From positions 12,124 to 76,123 of the forward strand of contig JAHIPV010000001.1 of NCBI GenBank assembly GCA_018902845.1: a stretch of 64,000 nt of DNA. Direction: 5' to 3'. Both the position numbers and the translations under genes were made by a program. The stretch is from Patescibacteria group bacterium. Lineage in GTDB: Bacteria; Patescibacteriota; Microgenomatia; UBA12405. This document shows positions 17,847-44,633 of this stretch, piece after piece. The notes below the pieces were generated by a model that was not told the DNA's origin, made no database searches, and worked only from the letters and a program-made list of their open reading frames with translations. Position 1 is the first letter of the stretch, and every line of letters starts with the position of its first letter.

Positions 17847-19346
17847 ATGAACAAAAACAGCAAAATTTATCGTCTTTGGGAAATGATTCCAGGCTTTTTT
17901 GCCTGGGTAGTAATTCTTTTTCCTATTGTCGGTTCTTTTATTATGCCAAAAGCCGTTGCTTATTTTGTTATCGCTTTTTTAATTTATTGGATTTATCAAT
18001 CCTTTAAATCTGCCATATTAGCCGTTATCGGTTATTTTAAGATTAAAAAATTTACCCAAATCAATTGGAAAAAAAGATTTTTTAAAAACAAGGACAAAAA
18101 CTTTTTACCATATGACAAAATAAATCACGTAATAATAATTCCATCATACAAAGAACCTATAGATATCATTGATATGGCTTTCGGCAGTTTGGCCAAACAA
18201 ACCGACATTAGTTTAAAAAAACTTCATGTAATTTTGGCCCAAGAAAGTCGAGCCGGTAAAGAAAATAACCAGAAAACCAAAAAATATTTCAAACAAAAAT
18301 ATAAAGACACTTTTGGAAATCTTGTTTTTACAGAACATCCACCCGGCTTACCAGGTGAAACCATAGGTAAGCACAGTAACGAAGCTTGGGCCGCCAAATA
18401 TTTCAAAAAAAATTACATAGACAAAAGAAAAGATTTAAATTTTAACTGCACCACTCTTACTACTTGCGACGTCGATACTATATTTAACCCAAAATATTTT
18501 TCAGCCCTAACTTATTTTTTTGCCTCAACCGAGAACAGATATTACAAATTTTGGCAATCACCAATTTTTTGGCATCACAATATAGACAAAGTTCCAGCGC
18601 CTATAAGAATAGTTGGTACCATGGGAAACATAATTCATATTGCTAACATTCAGGAGCCGGATGGTCTGTTTTTTAATTATTCTTGCTATTCCTCGTCATA
18701 TAGGCAAATTCATCTGGTCGGTTATTGGGATTTAGATGTTATTCCGGAAGATTGGCATATTTTTTTACAGTCATTTTTTGGCACTGGAGGCAGAAGTTCG
18801 GTGGACCCAATTTTTCTTCCAACCATAGTTGACGCTCCCAGCGGAACAAATTATTTCAATGCTCTAAAAAATCGTTACAATCAATGTCTTCGTCATGCTT
18901 GGGGAGCTACAGATATTGCTTATGCCATCGAACAAGCTCGCATTCACAAAGAAATTCCTTTACTCACTCGTATTTTAAGAATTTACAAACTTATAAAAAC
19001 CCATCTGATTTGGTCCAGTAATTGGTTTATTTTGACTCTGGGAACCAGTCTTCCTTCTATTTTAAATCCCAGGTTTTTCCAAACCTCTTTTGGTTACAAC
19101 TTACCCAAAATAGCCAATATAATCCTAACTATTTGTTTATTACCGCTTCTCGTCCTTATAATTTTGGATTGGAAATTAAGACCAAGGGATACAAAAAAAA
19201 CTTTTACTGATTGGTTCAAAAATTTGATTCAATGGCCGTTGATGCCAATTGCCACCCTAACCATGTCAGTTCTTCCCGGACTTCATTCCCATACCCGTCT
19301 TTTTTTTAACAAACGTCTTGAATATCAAACCACCAAGAAAAGCTAA
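17847..19346 (+). CDS. Putative membrane glycosyltransferase (GT2-like catalytic core flanked by TM helices)
   Basis: IIIPSYKEPIDII (GT2-like), CDVDTI (DXD) and QSPIFW (QxxRW-like), with N- and C-terminal TM segments. Confidence 0.45.
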   Translation: MNKNSKIYRLWEMIPGFFAWVVILFPIVGSFIMPKAVAYFVIAFLIYWIYQSFKSAILAVIGYFKIKKFTQINWKKRFFKNKDKNFLPYDKINHVIIIPSYKEPIDIIDMAFGSLAKQTDISLKKLHVILAQESRAGKENNQKTKKYFKQKYKDTFGNLVFTEHPPGLPGETIGKHSNEAWAAKYFKKNYIDKRKDLNFNCTTLTTCDVDTIFNPKYFSALTYFFASTENRYYKFWQSPIFWHHNIDKVPAPIRIVGTMGNIIHIANIQEPDGLFFNYSCYSSSYRQIHLVGYWDLDVIPEDWHIFLQSFFGTGGRSSVDPIFLPTIVDAPSGTNYFNALKNRYNQCLRHAWGATDIAYAIEQARIHKEIPLLTRILRIYKLIKTHLIWSSNWFILTLGTSLPSILNPRFFQTSFGYNLPKIANIILTICLLPLLVLIILDWKLRPRDTKKTFTDWFKNLIQWPLMPIATLTMSVLPGLHSHTRLFFNKRLEYQTTKKS

Positions 19347-19387
19347 TAAATCTACAATCCGACACAAAAATAATCTATAATAAATTT

Positions 19388-20695
19388 GTGAACCAACTAA
19401 ATGTTAGTCTATGGGGAGATGAAGCTTGGGCCGCCACCTTAATCAACAAAACTCCACTCAATATTATCAAATTTGTTTCTCACGATACTTCTCCTCCTTT
19501 TTATTACCTTTTCACTCATTTTTGGACACGAATTTTTGGCATGAGCGAAATCGGCCTAAGAACCTCAAGTCTCTTTTTTTGGTTTCTTACCGCTGTTTTT
19601 ACTGCTCTGATTGCTCATCAACTTTGGAAAAATAAAAAAACAACCTTTTTAGCTTTTTTGTTGGTTTTACTTAATCCCTTTCTTTTTCAATATGCCTTTG
19701 AGGCTAGAATGTATGCAATTTTAGCCTTAATGTCTACAATGGCTACCTATTTTTTTGTAGCCAAAAAATGGCCTGCTTATGTTATTTCGGCCACTGTGTC
19801 GCTTTATTGTCATCATTTTTCCTTGTTTATCATTTTTATACATTTTCTTTGGACAATTCTGGAATTTATCAAAAAACCCCAAAAACAGAACTTTTGGAAA
19901 AAAATCAGGCCTTTTATATTTATAGGATTCCTTTATCTTCCTTGGATTCCGGCTATGTATAAACAAACAAAGATGGTAACCGATAAGGGTTTTTGGTTGG
20001 GCAAGCCTGTACCAAAAGATTTAATTGAGCTCATCTTGAAATTTATTAAAGGTTTAAACAAGCACGTCTATCAAAAATATTTAGTAATAATAGCTGTTTT
20101 TATACTCTTGCTAAGAAAGTGGAAACTAAAAGATTCAAAAACTAATTTTCTGCTCCTTTCCTTATTTCTTCCGATTTTTATTGTTTACATAATCAGTCAT
20201 GTTGCTCAGTCGATTTTTTACGACCGTTACATGATTAATTTAATTCCGGTTTTTGTTTTAATCTTGGTCAGCAACAGAAGAAAAACTTTTTCTTTTCCCT
20301 TTTTTTTAGTTTTTATTTTCTTTCTCCTTAGGCTTAATTTTTGGTTTTTTACTAATCCCGATAAAAGACCGTTTAAACAACTTGCGTCTTACGTCAAGCA
20401 AACTCGCCAGCAGGGAGATACTCTTATTAACTGGAGCGGTAAGGCACATCACCTTTTCGAAAGCAAATATTATGGTGTTTATGCCCCAATCTATACTCCC
20501 GATGGCCCTCTGCCTTTTTATACCGGTACTGCCCTTATGGAAAGCTTTGATCAAATTGAAGAATTGCCCGACTCCGAAAGAATTGGTGTCATGACTAGTG
20601 AGCCGATAGAAACAATAAATCTTGAGTCGTATATTAAGACAGACCGGCAACAATTTGGTTCCTTATCATTTTCTTGGTGGGAAAGGAAAAAATGA
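19388..20695 (+). CDS. Glycosyltransferase family 39 / PMT_2 (ArnT-like) membrane protein
   Basis: N-terminal LWGDEAW...FYYLFTHFW pattern of PMT_2/ArnT-type GT-C enzymes. Polytopic. Confidence 0.6.
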   Translation: MNQLNVSLWGDEAWAATLINKTPLNIIKFVSHDTSPPFYYLFTHFWTRIFGMSEIGLRTSSLFFWFLTAVFTALIAHQLWKNKKTTFLAFLLVLLNPFLFQYAFEARMYAILALMSTMATYFFVAKKWPAYVISATVSLYCHHFSLFIIFIHFLWTILEFIKKPQKQNFWKKIRPFIFIGFLYLPWIPAMYKQTKMVTDKGFWLGKPVPKDLIELILKFIKGLNKHVYQKYLVIIAVFILLLRKWKLKDSKTNFLLLSLFLPIFIVYIISHVAQSIFYDRYMINLIPVFVLILVSNRRKTFSFPFFLVFIFFLLRLNFWFFTNPDKRPFKQLASYVKQTRQQGDTLINWSGKAHHLFESKYYGVYAPIYTPDGPLPFYTGTALMESFDQIEELPDSERIGVMTSEPIETINLESYIKTDRQQFGSLSFSWWERKK

Positions 20696-22161
20696 TAAAA
20701 AATAATTTTATTTTTAAATTTTTTTGCAAAAACAAATTCTTACTTTGTATTTTGCTTTTAAATCTCATCTTAAGAATCCCTTCATTTTTTGAACCCAATC
20801 GCTATGCTGATGAGGACATATATTTAAGCCTAGGGCAAAGCTTAAGAAAAGGACAAGTCTTTTACCGCGATATTCACGACAACAAACCCCCGCTTTTATA
20901 TGTCATCGCCGCCATGGCTGGATCTGTCTCGGCTTTTAGGTTTATTCTCTTTCTTTGGCATTCAGTTAACATTTATTTCTTTTGGCTTTTGGCCAAAAAA
21001 TTATTCAGTTCATCTTTCTTTTATAATTTTTCTACTTTATTTTTTACCGTTCTTTCAACCATTCCGATGATGGAGGGTAACATAGCCAATGGTGAAATTT
21101 TTATGATCATGCCAGCTACTATAGCGGTCTTTCTCATTTTTACCAAACAAAAAAACTTTGCCTTGGCTGGTCTTCTTTTTGCCATTGCTTTTCTTTTAAA
21201 AATTCCAATTATTTTTGATTTTTTTGCCATCTTTCTTTTTTTTCTAGTTTTTAAACCAAAAAACATAAAAACCTCGATACAAACCCTTTTTTCACCAAAA
21301 ATAATTTTCATGCTTTTAGCATTCGCATTTCCCATAGTTTTGAGTATTGTTTATTACTATCTCCTTGGGGCAGGTGAGCCTTATGTAAAAGCCGCTTTGA
21401 TGCAAAACGTTGGTTATTTATCTTCTTGGGAGGGGGGTGTCTCTAGGCCGATTTATCAATCTGGGCTCTTTCAAAGGTTAGTTATTTTTATCGTTTCTAT
21501 TGTTCTTCTTTTTAGTTTCAAAAAAAGACTTAACCAAAAATTCCTTCCAATATCATTGTGGTTTCTTGGCGCTCTTTTTGGTTCTTTTCTGTCTGGCCGG
21601 CCTTATCCTCACTATCTTATAGAAGTTTTGCCACCCTTTTGTCTTCTATTTTTCTTCTTATTGTCGGCAAAAAGCAAGATAACTGACAGGTTGATAATTG
21701 TCTTTTTATTTTCACTTATGGCCCTTGGTATTCACCAATACAAGTTTTGGAATTATCAAAACTGGCCATATTACAAAAATTTTATTCAATATGTCTTAAA
21801 GACCAAAAACAAACAAGAATATTGGAACTTTTGGGGTGATTATGTCACCAATAATTTCCAGACAGCTCAATACATCAAAAAAAATACCAGTAAAAACGAC
21901 AAAATTTTTGTTTGGGGAACAGAGCCTTCCATTTATGTTATGTCGCAAAAATCTCCGGTTGGTAGATATACCGTTGCATACCACGTAGCTGATTTTAATG
22001 GTTTTGATGAAACAATACGAAAAATAAAAATCAGTTTGCCTAAATTTATTGTTTACTGTCAAAACAACAAAATTCCCTTCCCTCAGCTGGACTCTGTTCT
22101 GTCGGACTATTATTATCTAAATCAAATTTTTGGAAATAATCTAGTTTTTAGGTTAAGATAA
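20674..22161 (+). CDS. GT-C fold glycosyltransferase (GT39/PMT-like), second copy
   Basis: N-terminal loop NRYADEDIYLSLGQSL (DE motif) followed by >10 TM helices. Confidence 0.5.
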   Translation: MVGKEKMIKNNFIFKFFCKNKFLLCILLLNLILRIPSFFEPNRYADEDIYLSLGQSLRKGQVFYRDIHDNKPPLLYVIAAMAGSVSAFRFILFLWHSVNIYFFWLLAKKLFSSSFFYNFSTLFFTVLSTIPMMEGNIANGEIFMIMPATIAVFLIFTKQKNFALAGLLFAIAFLLKIPIIFDFFAIFLFFLVFKPKNIKTSIQTLFSPKIIFMLLAFAFPIVLSIVYYYLLGAGEPYVKAALMQNVGYLSSWEGGVSRPIYQSGLFQRLVIFIVSIVLLFSFKKRLNQKFLPISLWFLGALFGSFLSGRPYPHYLIEVLPPFCLLFFFLLSAKSKITDRLIIVFLFSLMALGIHQYKFWNYQNWPYYKNFIQYVLKTKNKQEYWNFWGDYVTNNFQTAQYIKKNTSKNDKIFVWGTEPSIYVMSQKSPVGRYTVAYHVADFNGFDETIRKIKISLPKFIVYCQNNKIPFPQLDSVLSDYYYLNQIFGNNLVFRLR

Positions 22162-32874: not shown

Positions 32875-33532
32875 TATAATACCTCCACACTTAACTTACT
32901 GTTGCCTAATTGCAAAAAACCTCCAAAAGATTTCCAAATCCGAGGAGTTTTTAATTTGTCTAAAGCAACTAAGTTAAAAGTACCTTAACATCAATCAATG
33001 TGCGTTTTCATTAGTCATGATTGTTAGTATCAGAGGATGAAATCCTGATGATTTTGTTTACAAAATCTATTAGGATATTTTTTCAAAACTTTTTTCAGTT
33101 TATTTAAAACTGAACCCCTTGCAGATTAAAACCTGTCAAGGGTTGATACTAAGAGTTTGATCGTGGCTCAGGGTGAACGCTGGCGACGTGCCTAAGACAT
33201 GCAAGTCGAACGAGATTCGTATTTTACATAAGGAAATTACATAATAATTTTCTTGTGTAGAATACGATGACAGTGGCGAACGGGTGAGTAATAAGTACGA
33301 ACGTACCTCTAAGTGGAGCATAGCCTCGAGAAATCGTGGATAATACTCCATAGTCCTCGTATTTCATACAAGGAAATTCAAAGCACTAATATCTAAACTC
33401 AAAACTTTTTTGTTTTGGATTTTGAATATTTAGATTTTAAATTTATTTAGGATTTCGATATTAGAATTTAGGATTTTCTCGCATGGAATGCGAGGTAAAG
33501 ATTTATCGCTTAGAGAGCGGCGTACTCGCTAC

Positions 33533-33565
<33 letters not shown>

Positions 33566-34750
33566 GATGACGGCTACCGGCTCTTAGCGGAGGGTCCGGC
33601 ACAATGGGACTGAGACACGGCCCATACACCTACGGGTGGCAGCAGTTAGGAATATTGCGCAATGGACGAAAGTCTGACGCAGCGACGTCGCGTGTGGGAT
33701 GACGGCCTTCGGGTTGTAAACCACTTTTATTTCGTCATCATGGCGAGATGAATAAACAGCTACTAATTACGTGCCAGCAGTCGCGGTAATACGTAAGCTG
33801 TAAGCGTTACCCGGTTTTATTGGGCGTAAAGGGTCTGTAGGTGGTTTTTTAAGTCCTATTTCAAAGACTCCGACTTAATCGGAGAAAGGGGTAGGATACT
33901 GAAAGACTAGAGTTATATCGGGGTTACTGGAATTTATAGCGTAGGGGTAAAATCCGTGGATACTATAAAGAACACCAAGGGCGAAGGCGGGTAACTAGGT
34001 ATACACTGACACTGAAAGACGAAAGCTAGGGGAGCAAATCAGATTAGAGACCTGAGTAGTCCTAGCTGTAAACGATGTCTGTTAGTTCTACGAGCTTATG
34101 CTTGTGGGATGTAAGCTAACGCGTTAAACAGACCGCCTGGGGAGTATAGCCGCAAGGCCGAAACTCAAACGAATTGGCGGGGAGGCGCACAACCAGTGGA
34201 GCATGTGGTTTAATTCGATACGAAGCGATGAACCTTACCTGGGCTTGAAATCCTGTTTATGTTTTTCCCGAAAAGGAAAAACTCAGTGGCAGGACAGCTG
34301 TTGCATGGCTGTCGTCAGCTCGTGACGTGAGTTGTTCTCTTAAGTGAGGTAACGAGCGCAACCCCTATTCTGTGTTATTTTTTCACAGAAGACTGCTCAG
34401 CATTATTTTTGTTGGGAGGAAGGAGGGGACGACGTCAAGTCAGCATGATGCTTATGTCCAGGGCGACACACATCCTACAATGGGAAGTACAATGAGTTGC
34501 AATACCGCGAGGTGGAGCTAATCTATAAAACTTCCCTCAGTTGGGATTGCAGGCTGAAATTCGCCTGCATGAACTTGGAATTGGTAGTAATCGCAGATCA
34601 GCAGACTGCGGTGAATACGTTCTCGCCTCTTGCACACACAGCCCGTCAAATCAGCAAAGTTGAGGGTGCCCGAAGGACTCCGATCAATCGGAGGACTAAG
34701 GTAAATTCAGCGATGAGGGTTAAGTCGTAAATTGTTGCGACTCATGGAAG

Positions 34751-35471
34751 TAATTCCATGAACAAATCTGGCTGTATCGGGGAAATCTAAGTCCTAGTGT
34801 TAAAATTAGGATATGACAACCGCGAGGGAACCCGACCGTTTTTCTAAAAAACAACCGGGACTCCGTAGAGACTATACGCCAGCGCCTCAAATCAGTAAAT
34901 CTTATTTACTTGGAATTTTGCACGACGCCACAGAAAGAAAAACAACTTTTAGAATTAGTCAAAAAAGTGAAATTTTTGTCAAATTTATTGCCAAAGAAAT
35001 CAAAAGACTTGGTTCTGGAGCTTGGGTCTATAAAGAAGGGAAAAACAGAAATGTCTACGTTGTAGAATTTTCAAAAAGTTTTCTTAAAGGATTCAAGATA
35101 AAAACCAGACAAGACAAAATTGACTACATTCGAGGTTATTTTGATTCTGAGGGAGGTATTGCACATCATCCAAAAGTTCGTTTTTATATTTATTTTTCTC
35201 AAAAAGATATAAATGATCTTAAGGAAGTTAAGCAATGTCTCAAAGAATTAAATATTTCTTGTGGAAAAACGCATAATCCAAGCAAAAAAGTAGATCCTGA
35301 TTATTGGCGATTTTATATTTTAAGCAAATCTTACAAAGATTTTGCTAAAATTATTGGGTCCTTCCACCCAATCAAGAATCGTCTTTTGAGGATGAAGAGA
35401 TAGTCCGTACCCTTGGAAACAAGGGAATCGATTTTATTAGTTTTTTTAATAATTAAGTAAAATCAAATGAA
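34751..35471 (+). mobile_element. Intervening sequence (probable group I intron) in 16S rRNA at the E. coli ~1506 site, carrying a homing endonuclease ORF
   Basis: Insertion between conserved ...GGTTAAGTCGTAA and CAAGGTATCCGTACTGGAAGGTGCGGATGGATCACCTCCTT. Contains ORF 34813..35403. Confidence 0.6.
34813..35403 (+). CDS. LAGLIDADG-family homing endonuclease (intron-encoded)
   Basis: LLGILHDATE and IRGYFDSEGG are the two LAGLIDADG motifs of a single-chain homing endonuclease. The ORF lies wholly within the 16S insertion. Confidence 0.65.
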   Translation: MTTAREPDRFSKKQPGLRRDYTPAPQISKSYLLGILHDATERKTTFRISQKSEIFVKFIAKEIKRLGSGAWVYKEGKNRNVYVVEFSKSFLKGFKIKTRQDKIDYIRGYFDSEGGIAHHPKVRFYIYFSQKDINDLKEVKQCLKELNISCGKTHNPSKKVDPDYWRFYILSKSYKDFAKIIGSFHPIKNRLLRMKR

Positions 35472-35652: not shown

Positions 35653-35937
35653 ATGTCCACTGCAGTAATAAATATCAGAACCAACACTCATCTTAAACAA
35701 GAAGCAAAAAAAATTCTTGAGGAATTTGGTTTAACGCTAACATCGTTCATAAACGCTAAACTAAAAAAACTTGTTCGTAGCAGATCTATAGTTTTTTCCC
35801 TTAACAAAGAAGAAACCCTAACTCCTTGGGCGATTAAACAACTTAAAGAATCAGAAACAGATTACAAAAAAGGTAGAATTTCTCCGTCTTTTACCTCAGC
35901 CAAAGATGCGATAAAATGGCTTGAGCCAGATGAATAA
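35653..35937 (+). CDS. RelB/DinJ-family antitoxin
   Basis: AVINIRTNTHLKQEAKKILEEFGLTLTSFINAKLKKLV matches the DinJ N-terminal RHH-like region. Overlaps the toxin gene. Confidence 0.65.
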   Translation: MSTAVINIRTNTHLKQEAKKILEEFGLTLTSFINAKLKKLVRSRSIVFSLNKEETLTPWAIKQLKESETDYKKGRISPSFTSAKDAIKWLEPDE

Positions 35938-36208
35938 ACTTAAACTAAATTTTTCCAAAAAATTTCGCAAAAGTTATCAAAAATCTCCGACAAAAATCAA
36001 AAAACAATTCCAAAAAAGACTTAAAATTTTTGTTAAAAATCCACTTAATCCATCGCTCAAAAACCACCGTCTTACAGGAAAATATAAAGTTTATCGAAGT
36101 ATTAATATAACTGGTGATTGGAGAGCTTTATTTTCAACACAAAACCTCAAAAAAAGTTTAATCATTGAATTTAAATTTTTCGGAACACATAGTCAGCTGT
36201 ATGGATAA
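35921..36208 (+). CDS. YafQ/RelE-family mRNA interferase toxin
   Basis: KNHRLTGKYKVYRSINITGDWRALF (H.L.G....R...I..DwR). Probable true start MNKLKLNF at ~35933. Confidence 0.65.
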   Translation: MSQMNKLKLNFSKKFRKSYQKSPTKIKKQFQKRLKIFVKNPLNPSLKNHRLTGKYKVYRSINITGDWRALFSTQNLKKSLIIEFKFFGTHSQLYG

Positions 36209-36247: not shown

Positions 36248-36982
36248 ATGAATAAAAAAATCTCACCATTTCTAACCAAATTAAAAATAGATCCAAAAGA
36301 ACTTCCTAAGCATATCGGCATAATTATGGATGGCAATCGCCGTTGGGCTAAAGCCAGAGGGTTAAATGCCATAGACGGCCATACTGCCGGAGCTAAAAAT
36401 TTAGAAGCAATCATCGAGCATTGCGGAAAAATAGGTATCAAGCATTTAACTATTTATGCCTTGTCTACCGAAAATTGGCGCAAGAGATCAAAAGAAGAGG
36501 TCAAGGGTATTTTTAATCTACTCCTAGAAATTTTTAAAAGATGGAAAAAAGATTATAAAACTAAAGGTGTCAAATTTTTTGTTTTAGGTAACTTTCAGGC
36601 TCTCCCTCTTAGAGTACGTGACGCTATCAAAAACACGCTAAAAATAGTTTTAGACAAAGAAAGAATTAAGTTTAATGTAGCTCTCAACTATGGTGGCAGA
36701 GATGAAATAGTCATGGCTATAAAAAATATCATTAAAGATGGTGTCCCTGCCAGCAAAGTTAACGAAAAACTGGTTTCAAATTATCTTTATACCAAAGGAC
36801 AACCAGATCCGGACATGATTATTCGACCAGGTGGAGAATTTAGACTTTCAAATTTTTTACTTTGGCAAATGTCATATGCTGAACTCTATTTTACCGATGT
36901 TCTTTGGCCCGATTTCGGACCTAAAAAACTAGAAAAAGCTATTTACTGGTATCAGCAAAGAGACAGAAGAAAAGGAAAGTAA
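36248..36982 (+). CDS. uppS: Isoprenyl transferase (undecaprenyl-diphosphate synthase)
   Basis: HIGIIMDGNRRWAK, TIYALSTENWRR and RPGGEFRLSNFLLWQ UppS motifs. Confidence 0.9.
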   Translation: MNKKISPFLTKLKIDPKELPKHIGIIMDGNRRWAKARGLNAIDGHTAGAKNLEAIIEHCGKIGIKHLTIYALSTENWRKRSKEEVKGIFNLLLEIFKRWKKDYKTKGVKFFVLGNFQALPLRVRDAIKNTLKIVLDKERIKFNVALNYGGRDEIVMAIKNIIKDGVPASKVNEKLVSNYLYTKGQPDPDMIIRPGGEFRLSNFLLWQMSYAELYFTDVLWPDFGPKKLEKAIYWYQQRDRRKGK

Positions 36983-36984
36983 AA

Positions 36985-37275
36985 TCACAACACGCTTACT
37001 CCAAACATTGTTTCTACTACTTGCATAATTATATAACTCAAAAATATCAACAAAAACCCAACTACACCTGCTGTAATTTTCCCGTATCCTGCTTTAGTTC
37101 TAGCCGGATCGCCGGCCGCAGTCATCAGTTGTATTCCACCAGCAATCAACATCACAAACATTGACAATCCTGCTATAACGTAAACATACGGCAAGGCATC
37201 GCTAATTACATCACCCAGATCTCGGTTTGAAAATTTAAAAGCAGTACCTTGATAGCCTGGTAATGTTACTGCCAT
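36985..37275 (-). CDS. VirB2/TrbC-like pilin, second tandem paralog (start uncertain)
   Basis: AGGIQLMTAAGDPARTKAGYGKITAGVVGFLLIFLSYII parallels LATSGGDPKKVQGAKETLTSAVTGLLLSIFALFI of the upstream gene. The listed ORF extends into the upstream gene in another frame, so the start was placed at the internal Met. Confidence 0.4.
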   Translation of the reverse strand: MAVTLPGYQGTAFKFSNRDLGDVISDALPYVYVIAGLSMFVMLIAGGIQLMTAAGDPARTKAGYGKITAGVVGFLLIFLSYIIMQVVETMFGVSVL

Positions 37276-37277
37276 AC

Positions 37278-37700
37278 TTAGTTTAATCCTGGAATTTTTA
37301 ATATATCGACCGCAATTAACTTTAGTATAAACAAAGCAAAAATCGACAGCAATAAGCCGGTTACTGCCGATGTTAAAGTTTCCTTTGCCCCTTGGACTTT
37401 TTTTGGATCTCCGCCGGATGTAGCTAACAAGATAAAACTGTATACCATCAACAAAAAAGAAATTCCACCTATAATACCAAACAAATATGGCAAAAGCCAA
37501 GCAACTAATCCATCAATTTGTACCGGTATGCATCCAAGGGCAGTATTAACTTGTGGATCAGTGCTGTCAGCTCCGTGTCCCGTCGAATCACAAAACTCCT
37601 TGTCTTGAGCAAGCACTTTTTGTGGTAAAAATTTATTTAAAGTTACTCCTACCAACAAAAATCCCACCAGAAATACCAAAAAACTTTGCCACAATTTCAT
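37278..37700 (-). CDS. TrbC/VirB2-family pilin-like protein
   Basis: Signal peptide plus two hydrophobic helices around a G-rich SGGDPKK loop, typical of the T4SS-type pilins common in CPR genomes. Confidence 0.5.
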   Translation of the reverse strand: MKLWQSFLVFLVGFLLVGVTLNKFLPQKVLAQDKEFCDSTGHGADSTDPQVNTALGCIPVQIDGLVAWLLPYLFGIIGGISFLLMVYSFILLATSGGDPKKVQGAKETLTSAVTGLLLSIFALFILKLIAVDILKIPGLN

Positions 37701-37736
37701 AAATTTAAGTATAACACAAAATGCTAGAATGAATTT

Positions 37737-39476
37737 GTGATTAAAAAAATTTTTTCTCTTTTTTCTTTTTTATTTTTTTTACTAATCACGGTTTACAGTT
37801 TTTTCATTGCTAATTTTGCATTTGCCACTACCATCGATCAAGAAATTGCAGAAATCACCAAAAGAATATCAGAACTAGAAACAGCCATAGGGCCTCTCAA
37901 AGAAGAATCAGTTGATATTCAAAAAAAGATTAAATCGGCCAAAGATCAAATCTATCTAACCGAAGAACAAATAAAAAACACCGATCAAAAACTTATTGAC
38001 AAAGAAGCTGACTTGGAAGTTCAAAAACTGCTTCTTTCAGAAAGGGTCAAAAGGCTTTACAAAAACACCAAAAAATTCAACCCTTTACTGATATTTTTTT
38101 CAACTTCGCAAGGATCCAGTCTAATCCGCCAGTATTCCTGGTACCAATCCATAATCAACCAAGACACAAAACTTATCACCAGTTTCAATAAGGAAATTTT
38201 TGATCTTAACAACAACAAGGCAGAATTAAAAAAACAAAAAATCAAAATAGACGCCATCAAAAAAACTCTTGAAGACCGTTTTGGTTTTCTGTCGGGAGAA
38301 ATAAAAAAAGCTGAAGATTACAAAGCCGAGTTAACCAAAAAGCAACAATCTCTTATTGCCGAAAAAACAGCCATGTTTAATACCTCGGTTGGTGATGTTT
38401 CTTCATCTCAAGATCCAGCTTCCCGCGCTGATTATAATCCGGGTTTTGCTCCCGCCTTTGCTGTCTTTTCCTTTGGTGCTCCTCATCGCAAGGGCATGAG
38501 TCAATTTGGTGCTTTTGGTAGAAGTAAGCAAGGACAAGGTTATGAAAATATACTAAAAGCCTATTATGGCAATATCAGAATTGAAACGGTTGATACCCCC
38601 GGGTCAATTAGCACTTCTGTTGGAAGTTTGCCTTTTGAAGACAATTATCTTATTGGAATTGCCGAAATGCCAGCCAAATGGGGAGGGGAAGGGGGTATGG
38701 AGGCTCTAAGAGCTCAAGCAATTGCCGCCAGAACCTACGCCCTGTCTTATATTGGTTGGCGAATGGCAAATCGCAATGCCATCGGTTCTATTTGCACTAC
38801 CGAAGCCTGTCAGGTCTATTCGTCTTCTCGTCTTAATAATCCTGGTCTTTGGAAGCAGGCAGTCCAGGAAACTAGAGGCAAAATAATAGTCAGCAATGCT
38901 ACCAATGATGTTTTCTCTACTATGTATGCCTCTACTGCCGGTGGCGCTCTTTATTCTTATTCGTCCCTCGGTCATTCCACTCCTCAAGTTTGGGACACCA
39001 GTTGCAATAATCAATCTTGTTGGCCAAATGATGCTTATGAAAAAGTCTCTGATTCTCCCTGGTATTACAAAGGTTGGTACAAAACCAGAAGTAATCTCTC
39101 ATGTGGTCGTTCTCATCCCTGGCTTAATCAAAACGAGTTTACCGATGTTCTAAATGCTGTTTTGTATTACTCACAAACGTCTGATTCCTCCCATCTTTCC
39201 CAAACAAATTCCGGTGGTTGCTTCGGTGGCGATGATCCTAATGCCTGGAATTATGACGAACTTCGTCGTCAAACCGAAAGCCACGGTGGTCCGATTTCAG
39301 CCATCAATTCTATTCATGTCGATTATTCTACTGGTGGTTATACTCACAAAGTTAGGGTTGAAACAGACAAGGGTGGCTTTACCTTCGACGGTGAAGATTT
39401 CAAAAAAATCTTTATCCTCCGCGCCCCCGGAGCCATAACCATCAAATCCGGTCTATTTAACATAGAAAAAAAATAA
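37737..39476 (+). CDS. SpoIID/LytB-domain protein with an N-terminal coiled coil
   Basis: N-terminal TM then EnvC-like coiled coil. Then AEMPAKWGGEGGMEALRAQAIAARTYA SpoIID/LytB signature. Confidence 0.65.
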   Translation: MIKKIFSLFSFLFFLLITVYSFFIANFAFATTIDQEIAEITKRISELETAIGPLKEESVDIQKKIKSAKDQIYLTEEQIKNTDQKLIDKEADLEVQKLLLSERVKRLYKNTKKFNPLLIFFSTSQGSSLIRQYSWYQSIINQDTKLITSFNKEIFDLNNNKAELKKQKIKIDAIKKTLEDRFGFLSGEIKKAEDYKAELTKKQQSLIAEKTAMFNTSVGDVSSSQDPASRADYNPGFAPAFAVFSFGAPHRKGMSQFGAFGRSKQGQGYENILKAYYGNIRIETVDTPGSISTSVGSLPFEDNYLIGIAEMPAKWGGEGGMEALRAQAIAARTYALSYIGWRMANRNAIGSICTTEACQVYSSSRLNNPGLWKQAVQETRGKIIVSNATNDVFSTMYASTAGGALYSYSSLGHSTPQVWDTSCNNQSCWPNDAYEKVSDSPWYYKGWYKTRSNLSCGRSHPWLNQNEFTDVLNAVLYYSQTSDSSHLSQTNSGGCFGGDDPNAWNYDELRRQTESHGGPISAINSIHVDYSTGGYTHKVRVETDKGGFTFDGEDFKKIFILRAPGAITIKSGLFNIEKK

Positions 39477-39993: not shown

Positions 39994-40314
39994 GTGGACA
40001 AAGCCAGCAAATCACGCATTATTTTGACAGACAAAGAACTCAAGCAGGTTACTGGAATTGTTAAAAAGCACATCAACCTAAAAAAGTATAAAGCCTTTAT
40101 TTTTGGATCCAGAGTAATCGGCAACGCTCAAAAATATTCAGACATAGATATTGGCATTAAAGGCCATAGTCCTTTGCCTGTTATTACCAAGTTTAATCTT
40201 GAAGATGACTTTGAAAATTCAAAATTACCTTATTTGGTTGATGTTGTAGATTTTTTTTCTGTTTCAAAAGATTTTGAAAAATTAGCCAAATCAAGTATGA
40301 TTCAAATAGAATAA
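39994..40314 (+). CDS. Minimal nucleotidyltransferase (MNT) antitoxin-like protein
   Basis: FIFGSRVIGNAQKYSDIDIGI (GS..G...SDID). Confidence 0.7.
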   Translation: MDKASKSRIILTDKELKQVTGIVKKHINLKKYKAFIFGSRVIGNAQKYSDIDIGIKGHSPLPVITKFNLEDDFENSKLPYLVDVVDFFSVSKDFEKLAKSSMIQIE

Positions 40315-40703
40315 TGACAAAAAAAGATATTCTACTCCAGCAACTTGTCGCAGCAAAAAACAAGCTCAAAGAAGCGTTAAATCTAGAGCCTACAGAGTTC
40401 CACAAATTAGCTACTATACAAATTTTTGAAATTACTTTTGAATTATCATGGAAATATATTCAGCAGATCTTGCAATTTTCTGGAGTAATACCATTCAATA
40501 GCCCTAGAAAAATTATAAGGCAAGCAGGCAAGGTCGGTTTAGTCGATGATGTTACTGCATGGCTTAATTTAGTAGATGCTCGAAATATTACTGTCCATAC
40601 TTACGACGAATATTCGGCTAATCAGGTCTACAAAAAACTAAACTCAGTACCAGAGCTGGTTGACAAATTACTACAAAAAGCAAAAGAATTTAATCAATCC
40701 TAA
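40314..40703 (+). CDS. HEPN-domain protein (HI0074-family nucleotidyltransferase substrate-binding protein)
   Basis: DARNITVHTY HEPN Rx4-6H motif. Immediately follows the MNT gene with start/stop overlap. Confidence 0.7.
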   Translation: MTKKDILLQQLVAAKNKLKEALNLEPTEFHKLATIQIFEITFELSWKYIQQILQFSGVIPFNSPRKIIRQAGKVGLVDDVTAWLNLVDARNITVHTYDEYSANQVYKKLNSVPELVDKLLQKAKEFNQS

Positions 40704-40722: not shown

Positions 40723-41457
40723 ATGCCTCGTACAAAAGATCTCGATACAGTTGCCCCAGATGATCTAATTTCTGCCTCTCCCCGTAAGCCAAACAAGCCA
40801 AAGCGCAGTCACCCGCAAGGGGGGAAACCAAAAAAACAAACATCAAAATCTGCCGATCAGCAATATCGCCAAAAAGTTTACAAACTAATCGGGCACACCA
40901 AGCATCCCTTGTCTTCATTCTTGGCTCGGCCTAAAGTCTTTGATTTTGATGATCGCGACGGAGAAGAAGAAATCATACTCGTTTTACGTCGTCACTGGTT
41001 TACTAATTTAAACTGGATCTTGGTTTTCACTCTTATGCTGATTTTTCCATCTTTTCTTGATTTTGTCCCTCTCTTGGAATCATTTCCACCTCGCTATAAT
41101 CTGCTTTTTGTAATTTTTTGGTATTTAATTTCTTTCGCCGTTGCTTTCGAAAATTTTTTATCTTGGTATTTTAATGTTTTTATAGTCACGGAAGAAAGAG
41201 TGGTAGATATAGATTTTAATAATCTTCTTAACAAAGAAATTTCCGATGCCAAAATATCCATGATTCAAGACGTTACCTACACTGTCACCGGCGTCAGTCA
41301 AACCATTTTTAACTATGGTGATGTTTTCATTCAAACCGCCGCAGAAATACCCGTTATCGAGATAAGCCAGATTCCTAATCCAAACACTGTTGCCAAAATA
41401 TTACAGCAAATGAGATTAGAAGAAGAGCAGGAAGCATTGGAAGGGAGGATAAAATGA
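40723..41457 (+). CDS. Membrane protein with a bacterial PH-like (DUF304/YdbT-like) domain, putative
   Basis: Basic N-terminal tail, two TM helices, then a beta-rich segment (VTEERVVDIDF...VTYTVTGVSQTIFNYGDVFIQT) reminiscent of bPH_2. Confidence 0.4.
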   Translation: MPRTKDLDTVAPDDLISASPRKPNKPKRSHPQGGKPKKQTSKSADQQYRQKVYKLIGHTKHPLSSFLARPKVFDFDDRDGEEEIILVLRRHWFTNLNWILVFTLMLIFPSFLDFVPLLESFPPRYNLLFVIFWYLISFAVAFENFLSWYFNVFIVTEERVVDIDFNNLLNKEISDAKISMIQDVTYTVTGVSQTIFNYGDVFIQTAAEIPVIEISQIPNPNTVAKILQQMRLEEEQEALEGRIK

Positions 41458-41672
41458 CGAACTTGTTTGGTGCTTATATCTTAACAACAGCCAAGTTTTT
41501 ATCTATCTTTGGGTCTGTCTTGTATTCTATTTTTGCTTTTGTTGTTGTTCGCCAGGTTACCCTTATGTGTAAAAATGTTTACGACAAATTCAACTCTATA
41601 CTAATTACCTTTTCTTACATCCATTTTTTCACCGCCCTTCTCCTCATCCCTCTTACTCTCATTTTCCTATAG
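41454..41672 (+). CDS. Small hypothetical membrane protein
   Basis: 72 aa, two TM helices. Translationally coupled (4-nt overlap) to the upstream gene. Confidence 0.3.
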   Translation: MTNLFGAYILTTAKFLSIFGSVLYSIFAFVVVRQVTLMCKNVYDKFNSILITFSYIHFFTALLLIPLTLIFL

Positions 41673-41698
41673 TTCCTTTCTTGTTGTAATATTAATTA

Positions 41699-43528
41699 AT
41701 GTACTATACCTGCCGTTCGTTTATTGGAGCAGTTTCTGACAACAATTGGTCCCGCTATTGGGAAAACGAACCCGACGATCCTTTAATCGCTTCGTCAAAA
41801 GGACATCTTTTTGCTCTGCTTTCTTTAAGCAACAAATCAGCCCTAATTCCACAAGACAACATTGCCTCAATTGGCCATAAATTAACGGAAAAACTTAACC
41901 AAATATATTTTTTCGATTCCGAAACAAATATAGAAGTATGTCTCAAGCAAGCTGTTACTGATCTTTGTAATCAATCTTCAGGCGATTTTGACATAAGCTT
42001 AATCGTAGCCGTAGTTCATCAAAACACTTTTTATGCCTGTACTTACAATTCAGGCAATATCTCTATAATTCGCCAAAATCAAATCAGCCAGATTCTTGCC
42101 TCAAAAGATCAAGACATTACTTTCGTATCCGGACCGCTTCAGGACAAAGATAAATTTTTCTTTTATAACAACGATATTATTGATCTAATAACATGGCCAA
42201 AAATAAAAAAAATTCTATCACTCAACAAGCTTGAACTTATAGAGGAAAATCTTCTTCCTTCCCTCTATTCGGACAAAAACGAATTTTTCCCTGCCGCCGC
42301 CATTATAGAAATACACCAGCCGGAAGAAGAAAGTAAAAAACAAGAAATAGAAATTCCGCTTAAAAGTCACCCCAAAACACCTTTTTTCAAAAAAATTTTT
42401 AAACCAAAAAACATTATTGTATCTCCTCACCAATTAACCCAGATCAGTAAAAGGCGCCGGCTTAACTTGATCATTGTTTTTCTTTCTCTTTTAGGCCTTG
42501 CCGCCAGTACTTACTTTGGTTATCAAAAAAACTCTCAGAACAAAACAGAATCCAGTTTCCAGTCTTTAAAAGGGGACTTAGAGAAAAAAATCACCGACAT
42601 TCTAGCTATAAAAACTATTAATTTAGATACAGCCTCCCAGCTTTCACTTCAAGCTCAGTTAGTTCTGGACAAAATGAAAGAGCTAGAAATTCATCAAGAC
42701 GAAGTAAGCAAATATCAGCAAACGATTACTTCTCTGCTTTCTCAAACCGGCTCTTCCAATGCATTTCAACCGGACTCATTTTTCGACCTTTCTCTGATCG
42801 TAAGTCAGCCGTCCTTTTCAAAAATGATCTTACATCAGGACAAAATTTATTTATTGGATAATCAAAAAGCTCGTATAGATTCAGTAGATATTTTTCAAAA
42901 ATCAATCGATAACATTTCCATGGATGACAAAATCAAACAAACTCAAAATATTTTTATAAACAACAACAAAGTTTTTGCTCAAAATCCAGATACTATTTAT
43001 CAGCTTTCCAAAAATAATTGGCAGGCAAAAATTAACCTAAAAGAAAGCCAGCCGGATCTAAATATTATTGATATTCAGTCCTGGAACAATGCTATTTATC
43101 TATTGGATTCAAACACTCCTTCTGTTTGGAAATTTAATCCCAGCGCAGACTCCTTTGGGTCAATTCAAAACTGGATAAAAGAAGATAATTTTTCCAATCA
43201 AGCAACCTCAATAGCTATAAACGGAAAAATTTGGATTCTAAAAAAAGACGGAACCATTCTTTCATATTTAAGAGGAGAAGAGGATCCATACAAACAGAAC
43301 AAGGAAGGGGATTTCAAAGATACCTCTAATTTGCTTACCACTCCTGACACTAATCTCTTGGTTTTTACAGATGACTCGGTCATTATTTATGTCTACGACA
43401 AAGAAGGCCAATCAATTGCTAAATACAATCTGGGAGATAAAAAAATCCACGATATCTGTATTCACCAAAGCAGTAATATCCTTTTTGTTCTATGTCACGA
43501 CCAAAAAATCTACAAAATTGCGCTATAA
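41699..43528 (+). CDS. Large hypothetical protein: N-terminal PP2C-like (possibly degenerate) domain, one TM helix, C-terminal beta-rich (propeller-like) region
   Basis: GHLFALLSLS...ISLIVAVVHQNTFYACTYNSGNISIIRQNQ resembles PPM phosphatase motifs. TM LNLIIVFLSLLGLAASTYFGY. C-terminal repeated WxxxIYLLD / IWILKKDGTI blocks. Confidence 0.4.
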   Translation: MYYTCRSFIGAVSDNNWSRYWENEPDDPLIASSKGHLFALLSLSNKSALIPQDNIASIGHKLTEKLNQIYFFDSETNIEVCLKQAVTDLCNQSSGDFDISLIVAVVHQNTFYACTYNSGNISIIRQNQISQILASKDQDITFVSGPLQDKDKFFFYNNDIIDLITWPKIKKILSLNKLELIEENLLPSLYSDKNEFFPAAAIIEIHQPEEESKKQEIEIPLKSHPKTPFFKKIFKPKNIIVSPHQLTQISKRRRLNLIIVFLSLLGLAASTYFGYQKNSQNKTESSFQSLKGDLEKKITDILAIKTINLDTASQLSLQAQLVLDKMKELEIHQDEVSKYQQTITSLLSQTGSSNAFQPDSFFDLSLIVSQPSFSKMILHQDKIYLLDNQKARIDSVDIFQKSIDNISMDDKIKQTQNIFINNNKVFAQNPDTIYQLSKNNWQAKINLKESQPDLNIIDIQSWNNAIYLLDSNTPSVWKFNPSADSFGSIQNWIKEDNFSNQATSIAINGKIWILKKDGTILSYLRGEEDPYKQNKEGDFKDTSNLLTTPDTNLLVFTDDSVIIYVYDKEGQSIAKYNLGDKKIHDICIHQSSNILFVLCHDQKIYKIAL

Positions 43529-43538
43529 TTCCCCTTAA

Positions 43539-43955
43539 ATGAATTATTTCAACAAAAATTCACTAGACTATAAATTTATAGAAAAGTTCGAGGCTGGTTT
43601 AGTTTTAACCGGCTCAGACGCAAAATCATTGCGCACCCAAGGTATTCAATTTGGTGCCGTCAAAGTCGAGATAATAAACAACCGTCCTTTTTTGATTAAC
43701 TTAGATATTCCACTTTATAAATTCACCTCAAAAAATACTCTCTACGATACTACCCGCAATCGCGCCTTGCTCTTAAATTACAAACAAATCGCCAAACTAA
43801 TTTCCTACCGCAAGCAAAAATATATGATTATACCCATCTCAATTTACATCAAAAACAATTTCTTCAAAGCCGAAATTGGCATTGGCCGCAAAATGCGTAA
43901 ATACGAAAAACGCCAAAAAATAAAAGACAAAGAAATGAAGAAAAAACTTGGTTAA
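43539..43955 (+). CDS. smpB: SsrA-binding protein SmpB
   Basis: FEAGLVLTGSDAKSLR...TTRNRALLLNYKQI...KAEIGIGRKMRKYEKRQ SmpB signature blocks. Confidence 0.8.
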   Translation: MNYFNKNSLDYKFIEKFEAGLVLTGSDAKSLRTQGIQFGAVKVEIINNRPFLINLDIPLYKFTSKNTLYDTTRNRALLLNYKQIAKLISYRKQKYMIIPISIYIKNNFFKAEIGIGRKMRKYEKRQKIKDKEMKKKLG

Positions 43956-44057: not shown

Positions 44058-44132
44058 AAAAAGAGGACCTGTCCTGTAGTTAAAAACGAAAAGAGGACCT
44101 GTCCTCCGTAGCTCCAGTTCACTGGAGCGAAG
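44058..44132 (-). terminator. Tandem intrinsic terminators for the minus-strand transcript
   Basis: Two copies of AAAGAGGACCTGTCCT. On the minus strand each forms a GAGGA-CAGG-TCCTC hairpin followed by a T-run; a CTCCAGTGAACTGGAG hairpin lies just upstream. Confidence 0.45.
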
Positions 44133-44464
44133 GAGGAGATGCTCAGGTATGACCCGAGGTCCAAAAAACGATTTAAAAAACTTACTACAAGCTTAACTTG
44201 CTTAAAACTTAATCTTTGAAAAACAAAACAAGTCAATTTTTCCAAAGTGTCGATTGTTTGTGATTCTACTCACTCTTAAATAATTCAAGAATCGAGACTC
44301 AAATTATCGTGTTCCAGTTTAGTTGACACCCTTACTTATTCCCTCTGGAATAGAAAATAAAAGGATGACTCTCTCGCTTAAGCCTAAGCTACAGCAAGAT
44401 TTAAATTGAAATTGCTACCGGTAGAATAACCGACACCACTTTCAACTCTCGAAAGATTAGCCCC
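44085..44464 (-). ncRNA. ssrA: Candidate tmRNA (ssrA), tentative
   Basis: Minus-strand 5' end GGGGCTAATCTTTCGAGAGTTG resembles the tmRNA 5' tRNA-like end. It is followed ~50 nt later by a short reading frame AAT TTC AAT TTA AAT CTT GCT GTA GCT TAG GCT TAA (tag ...NFNLNLAVA with tandem stops). Convergent with smpB. The 3' tRNA-like end could not be identified. Confidence 0.25.
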
Positions 44465-44633
44465 AGCAAGAGCTAGGACATTTCTTAAAGCACTGCCGAA
44501 TGTATTGGCATGTTTTTTTTGATTTTGTTTTACGGCTGTTAATCAAAGCCGGCTTGCAGTTTTTTAAAGTGCATTTTCTGTCGATGCAATTACATCTCCT
44601 TGAGCACAAATTATACCAAAAATTTCGCCAAAG

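Follow-up and report, generated by a model that had tools for sequence, protein, structure and literature searches.

Two small adjacent genes on the minus strand of a 64,000-nucleotide (nt) stretch of Patescibacteria DNA (assembly GCA_018902845.1, contig JAHIPV010000001.1, positions 12,124 to 76,123; hereafter the window) raise the question of whether they encode pilin subunits of a type IV secretion system (T4SS) and, if so, how they relate to the divergently transcribed cell wall enzyme beside them. The contig belongs to a Shapirobacteria-like metagenome-assembled genome from the candidate phyla radiation (CPR, or Patescibacteria), its closest relatives being Candidatus Shapirobacteria of the class Microgenomatia. 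Here, we show that the two genes form a bicistronic operon encoding two distinct members of the Patescibacteria-rich family PF18895, each a small helical-hairpin membrane protein, and that the operon holds a fixed core-genome position in Shapirobacteria-like genomes. The first-pass annotation, made from the sequence alone, had proposed T4SS-type pilin paralogs of a CPR bacterium; this is partly supported, at the level of the family and not by VirB2/TrbC homology or by local machinery. Positions 36248 to 39476 of the window hold four genes, namely uppS, the two small minus-strand genes, and a divergent gene for a protein of 579 amino acids (aa):

36248..36982, plus strand: uppS (undecaprenyl-diphosphate synthase, 244 aa; PF01255, E=1.6e-77, residues 26-243)
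36985..37275, minus strand: pilin-like gene 2, 96 aa (PF18895, 34.3 bits against a gathering cutoff of 26.6)
37278..37700, minus strand: pilin-like gene 1, 140 aa (PF18895, 28.4 bits against the same cutoff)
37737..39476, plus strand: SpoIID/coiled-coil gene, 579 aa, GTG start (PF08486, TIGR02669)

Two PF18895 hairpin proteins in one operon

Set against a T4SS-pilin hidden Markov model (HMM), the check that the first-pass annotation had named, both small proteins pass the gathering cutoff of PF18895 (T4SS_pilin), and precomputed matches to this family are recorded for most of their homologues. As is characteristic of the family, each is a small protein built around a pair of hydrophobic helices with a short charged loop between them. 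The two-helix proteins with ..SGGDPKK.. and ..AAGDPARTK.. loops that were picked out at first reading are indeed paralogs, with 30% identity over a 60-residue hairpin core and a profile-profile probability of 96.6% (E=5.5e-10). Hydropathy analysis finds three hydrophobic segments in protein 1, for which a Sec signal peptide is predicted, from hydropathy and the (-3,-1) rule only, at residues 1-31, with a conserved Ala at -1 and cleavage after ...KVLA31, before QD. Across 53 aligned homologues, C57 never varies, and A31 and C37 are nearly invariant. The mature protein would start with an acidic segment that carries Cys37, Cys57 and a predicted beta-hairpin (residues 50-59), followed by helices 62-93 and 99-130, with the SGGDPKK loop between them, and by a conserved C-terminal IPGxN; its AlphaFold2 model has a mean predicted local distance difference test score (pLDDT) of 84.6, with both helices at 86-96. 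Protein 2 consists of a short N-terminal tail and hydrophobic helices at about residues 28-52 and 66-88, joined by the positively charged loop AAGDPARTKAGYGK, and neither it nor its homologues have a predicted signal peptide. The loop charges (+3/-2 and +3/-1) and the hydropathy peaks agree with a two-helix hairpin, and from hydropathy and charge (basic loops, acidic tails) a loop on the inner side of the cell membrane and both termini on its outer side are predicted, which is the topology of VirB2-type pilins.

Pilin 1 orthologues in some species carry a Cys-rich extension of about 100-330 residues between signal peptide and hairpin (L029, 8939-10324; L090, 8879-10282; L091, 8969-10285; L092, 8852-10282; L037, 2806-3801), for which Pfam gives no match. 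Fusions to PKD domains, or chains of up to eight hairpins, are seen among the family members of another lineage. On one other Patescibacteria contig (L102, 9925-16481), an 820-aa protein with eight PF18895 hairpin units and a faint PF04956 TrbC match is followed by two more family members, one of them with a PKD domain, and then by a 718-aa PKD-repeat protein; this array likewise does not adjoin VirB4. The Cys-rich extensions, PKD fusions and multi-hairpin chains fit a surface-exposed N-terminus.

The junction of the two genes had appeared at first reading as an overlap in different frames without a clean start for the second gene. Two features describe it:

37273..37280, minus strand: stop-start junction TAA-GT-ATG between the pilin genes, read directly from the sequence
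37276..37500, minus strand: non-coding open frame upstream of the pilin 2 start, overlapping pilin 1 in another frame

On the minus strand the sequence runs ...AAC TAA GT ATG GCA GTA..., with the stop of gene 1 at 37280-37278 and the ATG of gene 2 at 37275, 2 nt past that TAA, a spacing that is a translational-coupling distance and not a frameshift. The 171-codon open reading frame (ORF) reaching up to 37500 that a mechanical ORF finder reports is the gene 2 frame left open upstream of its true start, and the supposed overlap is an artefact of this extension. The second ORF, which might have turned out to be non-coding, is coding and conserved: its 43 homologues are 92-128 aa long, most with the N-terminus MAV(T)LP, and in 57 of 65 related loci pilin 2 begins within -7 to +7 nt of the preceding stop codon (median 2 nt). 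Ahead of pilin 2, its frame stays open for 79 codons in the window, the maximum seen, versus a median of 3 codons in the 65 relatives, of which 55 have 10 codons or fewer. The identical 140-aa protein is present on 16 contigs and, among the six such loci shown, a 96-aa gene is called directly after it in the five that extend past gene 2; these assemblies come from NCBI, JGI, ENA and Logan, and five are called independent. Because the 96-aa gene is called after the identical 140-aa protein in five assemblies, an assembly frameshift is excluded.

The arrangement is a stable property of the lineage. A search across one genome per GTDB species gave 80 loci, all with pilin 1 (the query; median identity 64.5%), and these were compared by tblastn with the window proteins. 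Pilin 2 stands beside it in 79 of the 80 (53.8%), the exception being cut by a contig end, and the divergent SpoIID gene in 78 (63.7%); uppS is found at 71 of these loci (71.7%) and smpB at 57 (61.5%). Some 80 species-level genomes thus keep the order of a SpoIID gene divergent from pilin 1 and pilin 2, which in turn converge on uppS, within a larger housekeeping block that reaches smpB through an optional ~169-aa protein, a ~240-aa membrane protein, DUF5657 and a ~600-aa unknown. In an HMM scan of all reading frames, 77 of 84 loci contain two family members and no more, and six contain three or four. The pilin pair is therefore part of the core gene set of the lineage and evolves at housekeeping rates. 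The adjacency of uppS, which had been counted as part of a module, is itself real (uppS converges on the pilin operon with 2 nt between the two stop codons), but since the whole neighbourhood of about 12 kb, smpB and uppS included, is syntenic across the lineage, adjacency, especially that of uppS, carries little functional weight. That of uppS and smpB is general synteny and not necessarily function, and uppS is a housekeeping neighbour.

The divergent promoter region and the SpoIID-type enzyme

Only 36 nt separate the divergent start codons, the ATG of pilin 1 and the GTG of the SpoIID gene, and most relatives have in common a divergent promoter region of roughly 38 bp with two back-to-back extended -10 boxes. 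In the window these are, 5 nt apart:

37708..37716, minus strand: extended -10 box TGTTATACT, 7 nt upstream of the pilin 1 ATG, read directly
37722..37730, plus strand: extended -10 box TGCTAGAAT, 6 nt upstream of the SpoIID GTG, read directly

On the pilin side, the relatives conserve TGnTATACT with an ATG 5-7 nt after it, and on the SpoIID side the same box is followed by 5-6 nt and GTG. A strict pattern of GTG, 5-6 nt, extended -10, 2-3 nt, extended -10, 5-6 nt and ATG recurs at 49 of 78 loci, where shuffles predict 0.06. A generic promoter and terminator scan gave no excess over shuffles, and the promoter assignment rests on conservation across species. We infer that two leaderless transcripts would arise from these back-to-back promoters, since the spacing puts each start codon at the expected transcription start. 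Across the window, a TAnnnT box lies 5-8 nt upstream of 27 of 64 ORF starts, 10 of which are also preceded by TGn, and a Shine-Dalgarno-like motif precedes only 3 of the 64; leaderless initiation thus appears to be the rule in this genome and so is not special to the pilin locus. The conserved back-to-back arrangement favours a regulatory link between the SpoIID gene and the pilin operon. For the pilus or wall-remodelling module put forward in the first-pass annotation, this speaks in favour, whereas the synteny of the whole ~12-kb block leaves the argument from neighbourhood little weight.

The divergent gene encodes, as had been read from the sequence, a protein that combines an EnvC-like coiled coil with a SpoIID/LytB domain. 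Its matches to PF08486 (E=1.2e-15, 58.3 bits against a cutoff of 23) and TIGR02669 (98.3 bits against 83.3) place it in the SpoIID family, and its AlphaFold2 model (pLDDT 71.7) shows a membrane helix, two long antiparallel helices, a disordered linker and a folded C-terminal half:

about residues 1-24: N-terminal membrane helix (AlphaFold2)
residues 33-213 (helices 33-111 and 125-213; nt 37833-38375): antiparallel coiled-coil hairpin (AlphaFold2)
residues 243-405 (nt 38463-38951): SpoIID/LytB catalytic region
residues 406-579: conserved C-terminal extension of about 175 residues

The similarity of the coiled coil to PcsB, EnvC and RipA stays below significance: PF24568 (PcsB coiled coil) reaches 24.6-25.8 bits in orthologues, short of its cutoff of 27, the sequence of EnvC (8tzk) matches the 579-aa protein at E=0.009, and Foldseek returns EnvC (8tzl_E, E=0.017) and the RipA N-terminal domain (6ewy, TM score 0.70) among many SMC-type coiled coils, with E values for EnvC and RipA of 0.017-0.18, all above 1e-3. 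The predicted plan, an N-terminal antiparallel hairpin (about 180 residues) and then a wall-acting domain, is that of the FtsEX-controlled group of PcsB, EnvC, CwlO and RipA/RipC, from which the protein studied here differs in that its C-terminal domain is of the SpoIID type instead of CHAP, LytM or NlpC/P60. No ftsEX is present in the window.

With the SpoIID/LytB lytic transglycosylases of Bacillus subtilis and Clostridioides difficile (5i1t, 4rwr) the protein shares GxxHxxGMSQxGA, AARTY and a conserved Glu-Met, and it differs from them in swapped segments, the added coiled coil and the 175-residue C-terminal extension. phmmer matches it to the SpoIID structures 5i1t and 5txu with the segments in swapped order, query residues 198-284 corresponding to SpoIID 240-328 and query residues 302-404 to SpoIID 67-177. 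Here the GxxHxxGMSQxGA...YY motif comes ahead of the PF08486 segment, whereas in 5i1t it is C-terminal. Because the conserved segments are swapped relative to solved SpoIID structures, the alignments suggest that the SpoIID region is circularly permuted. E310-M311-P312 is invariant in 44 orthologues, and E310-M311 probably corresponds to the catalytic Glu-Met of SpoIID, whose glutamate is E101 in the C. difficile enzyme; in the HMMER alignment E310-M311 lies two residues from the GEM of 5txu, an equivalence that hinges on the placement of a 2-residue gap.

What the pair may be for

Related proteins have been surveyed across the Patescibacteria. PF18895 and related profiles were run on 3,035 genomes (Quinonero-Coronel et al. 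2025, PMC12102498), in which VirB2-like proteins occurred in 1,948 VirB4-positive assemblies and near virB4 in only 1,135. The same survey described 441 arrays of 2-11 VirB2-like genes, above all in Microgenomatia and Saccharimonadia; within an array, identity averages 25%. Its Table S1 lists VirB4 in five Shapirobacteria genomes (PMC12102498), three of which carry the locus studied here (L043, L048 and L077), while its tables do not list GCA_018895715.1, the metagenome-assembled genome to whose contig JAHIMY010000025.1 the window was matched. Pilin-array genes are essential in Southlakia epibionticum (PMC10633639; PMC12857230), and a 2025 review repeats the survey findings and stresses that no pilus has been seen so far (PMC12857230). 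An array in the published sense consists of at least two tandem PF18895 genes of low identity (PMC12102498), and the pair, 2 nt apart and 30% identical over 60 aa, is of this kind. It resembles the patescibacterial arrays (e.g., SEML1_0006-0019 of S. epibionticum ML1; PMC12102498) in its family, in its tandem divergent paralogs (30% identity here and 25% in the published average), in its occurrence in Microgenomatia, where arrays are frequent, and in coming from a monoderm CPR organism. It differs in being a strict pair, with no virB4 in the 64-kb window, and fixed in a housekeeping position in about 80 species, with an unusually conserved protein 1 (~65%), a protein 2 that lacks a signal peptide, and a divergent SpoIID-type partner.

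By analogy with these arrays, the likeliest role of the pair, at about even odds in our judgment, is to provide membrane-stored subunits for a VirB4-type system of the lineage, encoded elsewhere. The operon would be transcribed from its extended -10 promoter as a leaderless mRNA, and gene 2 would be translated by coupling, as proposed because its ATG lies 2 nt past the first stop. Protein 1 would be exported by Sec and cleaved after Ala31, leaving about 109 residues, with an acidic, disulfide-stabilized N-terminal segment outside, two membrane-spanning helices and a short basic loop inside; protein 2 would adopt the same hairpin topology without a signal peptide. By analogy with the S. epibionticum array and VirB2-type pilins, a monoderm-type, VirB4-driven T4SS encoded elsewhere on the chromosome may then draw subunits out of their membrane pool and build them into a surface filament or the stalk of a channel, and the filament would, again by analogy, serve host contact or exchange and not conjugation. 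The divergent gene would supply a membrane-anchored, peptidoglycan-cleaving enzyme of the SpoIID type with a PcsB/EnvC/RipA-like hairpin, expressed from a promoter back to back with that of the pilins; its default role would be septal or lateral wall remodelling, and it could also open the wall for the filament.

The likeness to VirB2/TrbC pilins, as the first-pass annotation had named the pair, holds for architecture and fails for sequence. Like the Agrobacterium T-pilin (PF04956), the proteins are small, with two hydrophobic helices, a short basic loop and both termini predicted outside the membrane, and protein 1 would in addition have a cleavable leader. They differ in lacking any detectable sequence or profile similarity, in not lying between virB1 and virB3, in the leaderless protein 2, and in a GGDPK loop motif that is absent from VirB2. 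The nearest curated family is NF045849, the pilin-like conjugal transfer proteins of Mycoplasma integrative conjugative elements; protein 2 matches it at E=7e-7 and protein 1 at 0.0023, and both scores (28.8 and 17.6 bits) fall short of the 40-bit cutoff. Members of this Mbov_0395 family are likewise small hairpin proteins, belonging to a monoderm-type conjugation system, whereas the genes studied here lie outside any integrative conjugative element. The family to which the pair belongs is very large, with 19,255 cluster representatives retrieved by a protein 2 profile at E<=0.001, and tblastn of pilin 2 against 72,556 plasmids found no meaningful match and placed no relative in a genuine conjugative cluster. 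Because no VirB2/TrbC similarity was detected, the T4SS link rests on the Pfam family, the weak NF045849 match and the literature.

A number of results weigh against the proposed role as stored pilin subunits. PF04956 matches neither protein at E<=1, and hhalign probabilities against nine plasmid proteins annotated as VirB2 or TrbC/VirB2, each with VirB3 beside it and in most cases a VirB1-like lytic transglycosylase as well, are 0.5% and 0.2%, with a reference set that is narrow (alphaproteobacterial mating-pair-formation type MPF_T only) and leaves remote homology outside its reach. Profile searches of both pilin alignments against Protein Data Bank sequences returned nothing relevant, and fold searches returned only generic helical hairpins, which are non-diagnostic. 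For protein 2 no signal peptide is predicted, although VirB2 pilins typically have one. Gene calls and Pfam find none of the VirB4, VirB6, VirD4, VirB11, PilB, PilT or PilC families in the 64-kb window (the first-pass annotation had advised looking for most of them elsewhere in the genome), nor do the 20-kb neighbourhoods of three relatives show any gene for a T4SS or a type IV pilus; over this range the pair does not lie within a T4SS gene cluster of the virB1/B3/B4/B6 kind. Protein 1 equals SmpB and SpoIID in its conservation, and the pair is embedded in a housekeeping block, which sets it apart from the variable, virB4-linked arrays described so far. To our knowledge, no PF18895 protein has been demonstrated to form a pilus, the family name being an annotation.

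Several of these observations would also be expected if the hairpin proteins were constitutive membrane components of the envelope or division apparatus, for instance anchoring or regulating the SpoIID/PcsB-like hydrolase independently of any T4SS, a possibility that we consider real if unlikely. The core position beside the hydrolase in 78 of 80 species with a promoter region in common, the housekeeping level of conservation, the absence of T4SS genes nearby, the lack of detectable homology to genuine VirB2 and the non-diagnostic fold all speak for it. It sits less well with the passage of both proteins over the PF18895 cutoff, given that the T4SS cluster of S. epibionticum, which is essential, contains members of the family (PMC10633639). 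Moreover, the ~12-kb block is syntenic, so that the adjacency may be historical, and the Cys-rich extensions, together with the PKD fusions of other lineages, suggest surface display and not an intramembrane regulator.

Improbable in our estimation is a closer union of the two transcription units, in which the SpoIID-type enzyme would substitute for the VirB1 hydrolase that is missing from most Patescibacteria T4SS clusters and would form with the pair one co-regulated module of pilus biogenesis. The back-to-back promoters in 49 of 78 loci and the invariant catalytic-type Glu (E310) are what this would predict, but the hairpin of the enzyme resembles those of division hydrolases and their activators (PcsB, EnvC and RipA), and its more than 3,000 homologues suggest a general wall enzyme. 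Doubtful too is the broader speculation that the Shapirobacteria pair and the SpoIID/PcsB-like enzyme constitute a co-regulated core module for a constitutive surface filament, tipped or decorated by Cys-rich N-terminal domains in some species and with SpoIID replacing VirB1, or that the pair works without any T4SS.

A frameshift near 37275-37300, unusual initiation or programmed frameshifting in the second gene has next to no probability, its sole support being the frame that stays open for 79 codons upstream in the window, while a single frameshifted gene is ruled out by the clean ATG, the conserved 96-aa product with its MAVTLP N-terminus, the short upstream frames of relatives and the same gene calls in five independent assemblies. 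A holin-like reading of two-helix proteins beside a wall hydrolase was also set aside, as the enzyme is self-anchored and the small proteins are products of core genes with a housekeeping level of conservation.

Neighbouring genes and significance

Gene calls and Pfam show the 64 kb to be otherwise of housekeeping content, with glycolysis, the pentose-phosphate pathway, glycosyltransferases and tRNA synthetases, as well as two class A penicillin-binding proteins, 16S rRNA, tmRNA, smpB and several toxin-antitoxin pairs. Two of these pairs, RelB/YafQ and nucleotidyltransferase/HEPN-like, at 35653-36208 and 39994-40703, lie within the otherwise syntenic block and are missing at the equivalent positions of loci L010 and L011, an absence that points to lineage-specific insertion. 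The interval from the SpoIID gene to smpB holds a conserved trio (40723-43528), kept in 59-63 of 80 related loci: a membrane protein of 244 aa with a weak match to a bacterial PH domain, a DUF5657 protein of 72 aa, and a protein of 609 aa that has a single membrane helix at its centre. Pfam and NCBIfam scans match none of the three to a T4SS family. Farther along, smpB (43539-43955, plus strand) adjoins the tmRNA gene (44131-44599, minus strand), to which it is convergent. The 16S rRNA gene (33145-34772) has no 23S gene nearby, and an ORF for a LAGLIDADG homing endonuclease (34813-35403) begins 40 nt beyond it. Three successive ORFs without a Pfam family at 17847-22161 (499, 435 and 495 aa), one with a weak mannosyltransferase-like NCBIfam match, may, since they adjoin a Glycos_transf_4 gene and the two class A penicillin-binding proteins, belong with these neighbours to a cell-envelope glycosylation cluster.

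Patescibacteria depend on host cells, and in the sole genetic study so far VirB2-like pilin arrays were essential. Arrays of this kind were already described in 2023-2025, and the present locus adds detail to them and no new kind of system. What it adds is one lineage that keeps a fixed, highly conserved pair, unlinked to virB4 and wired promoter to promoter with a wall-cutting enzyme, which makes the locus a simple and well-defined target for structural and expression work.

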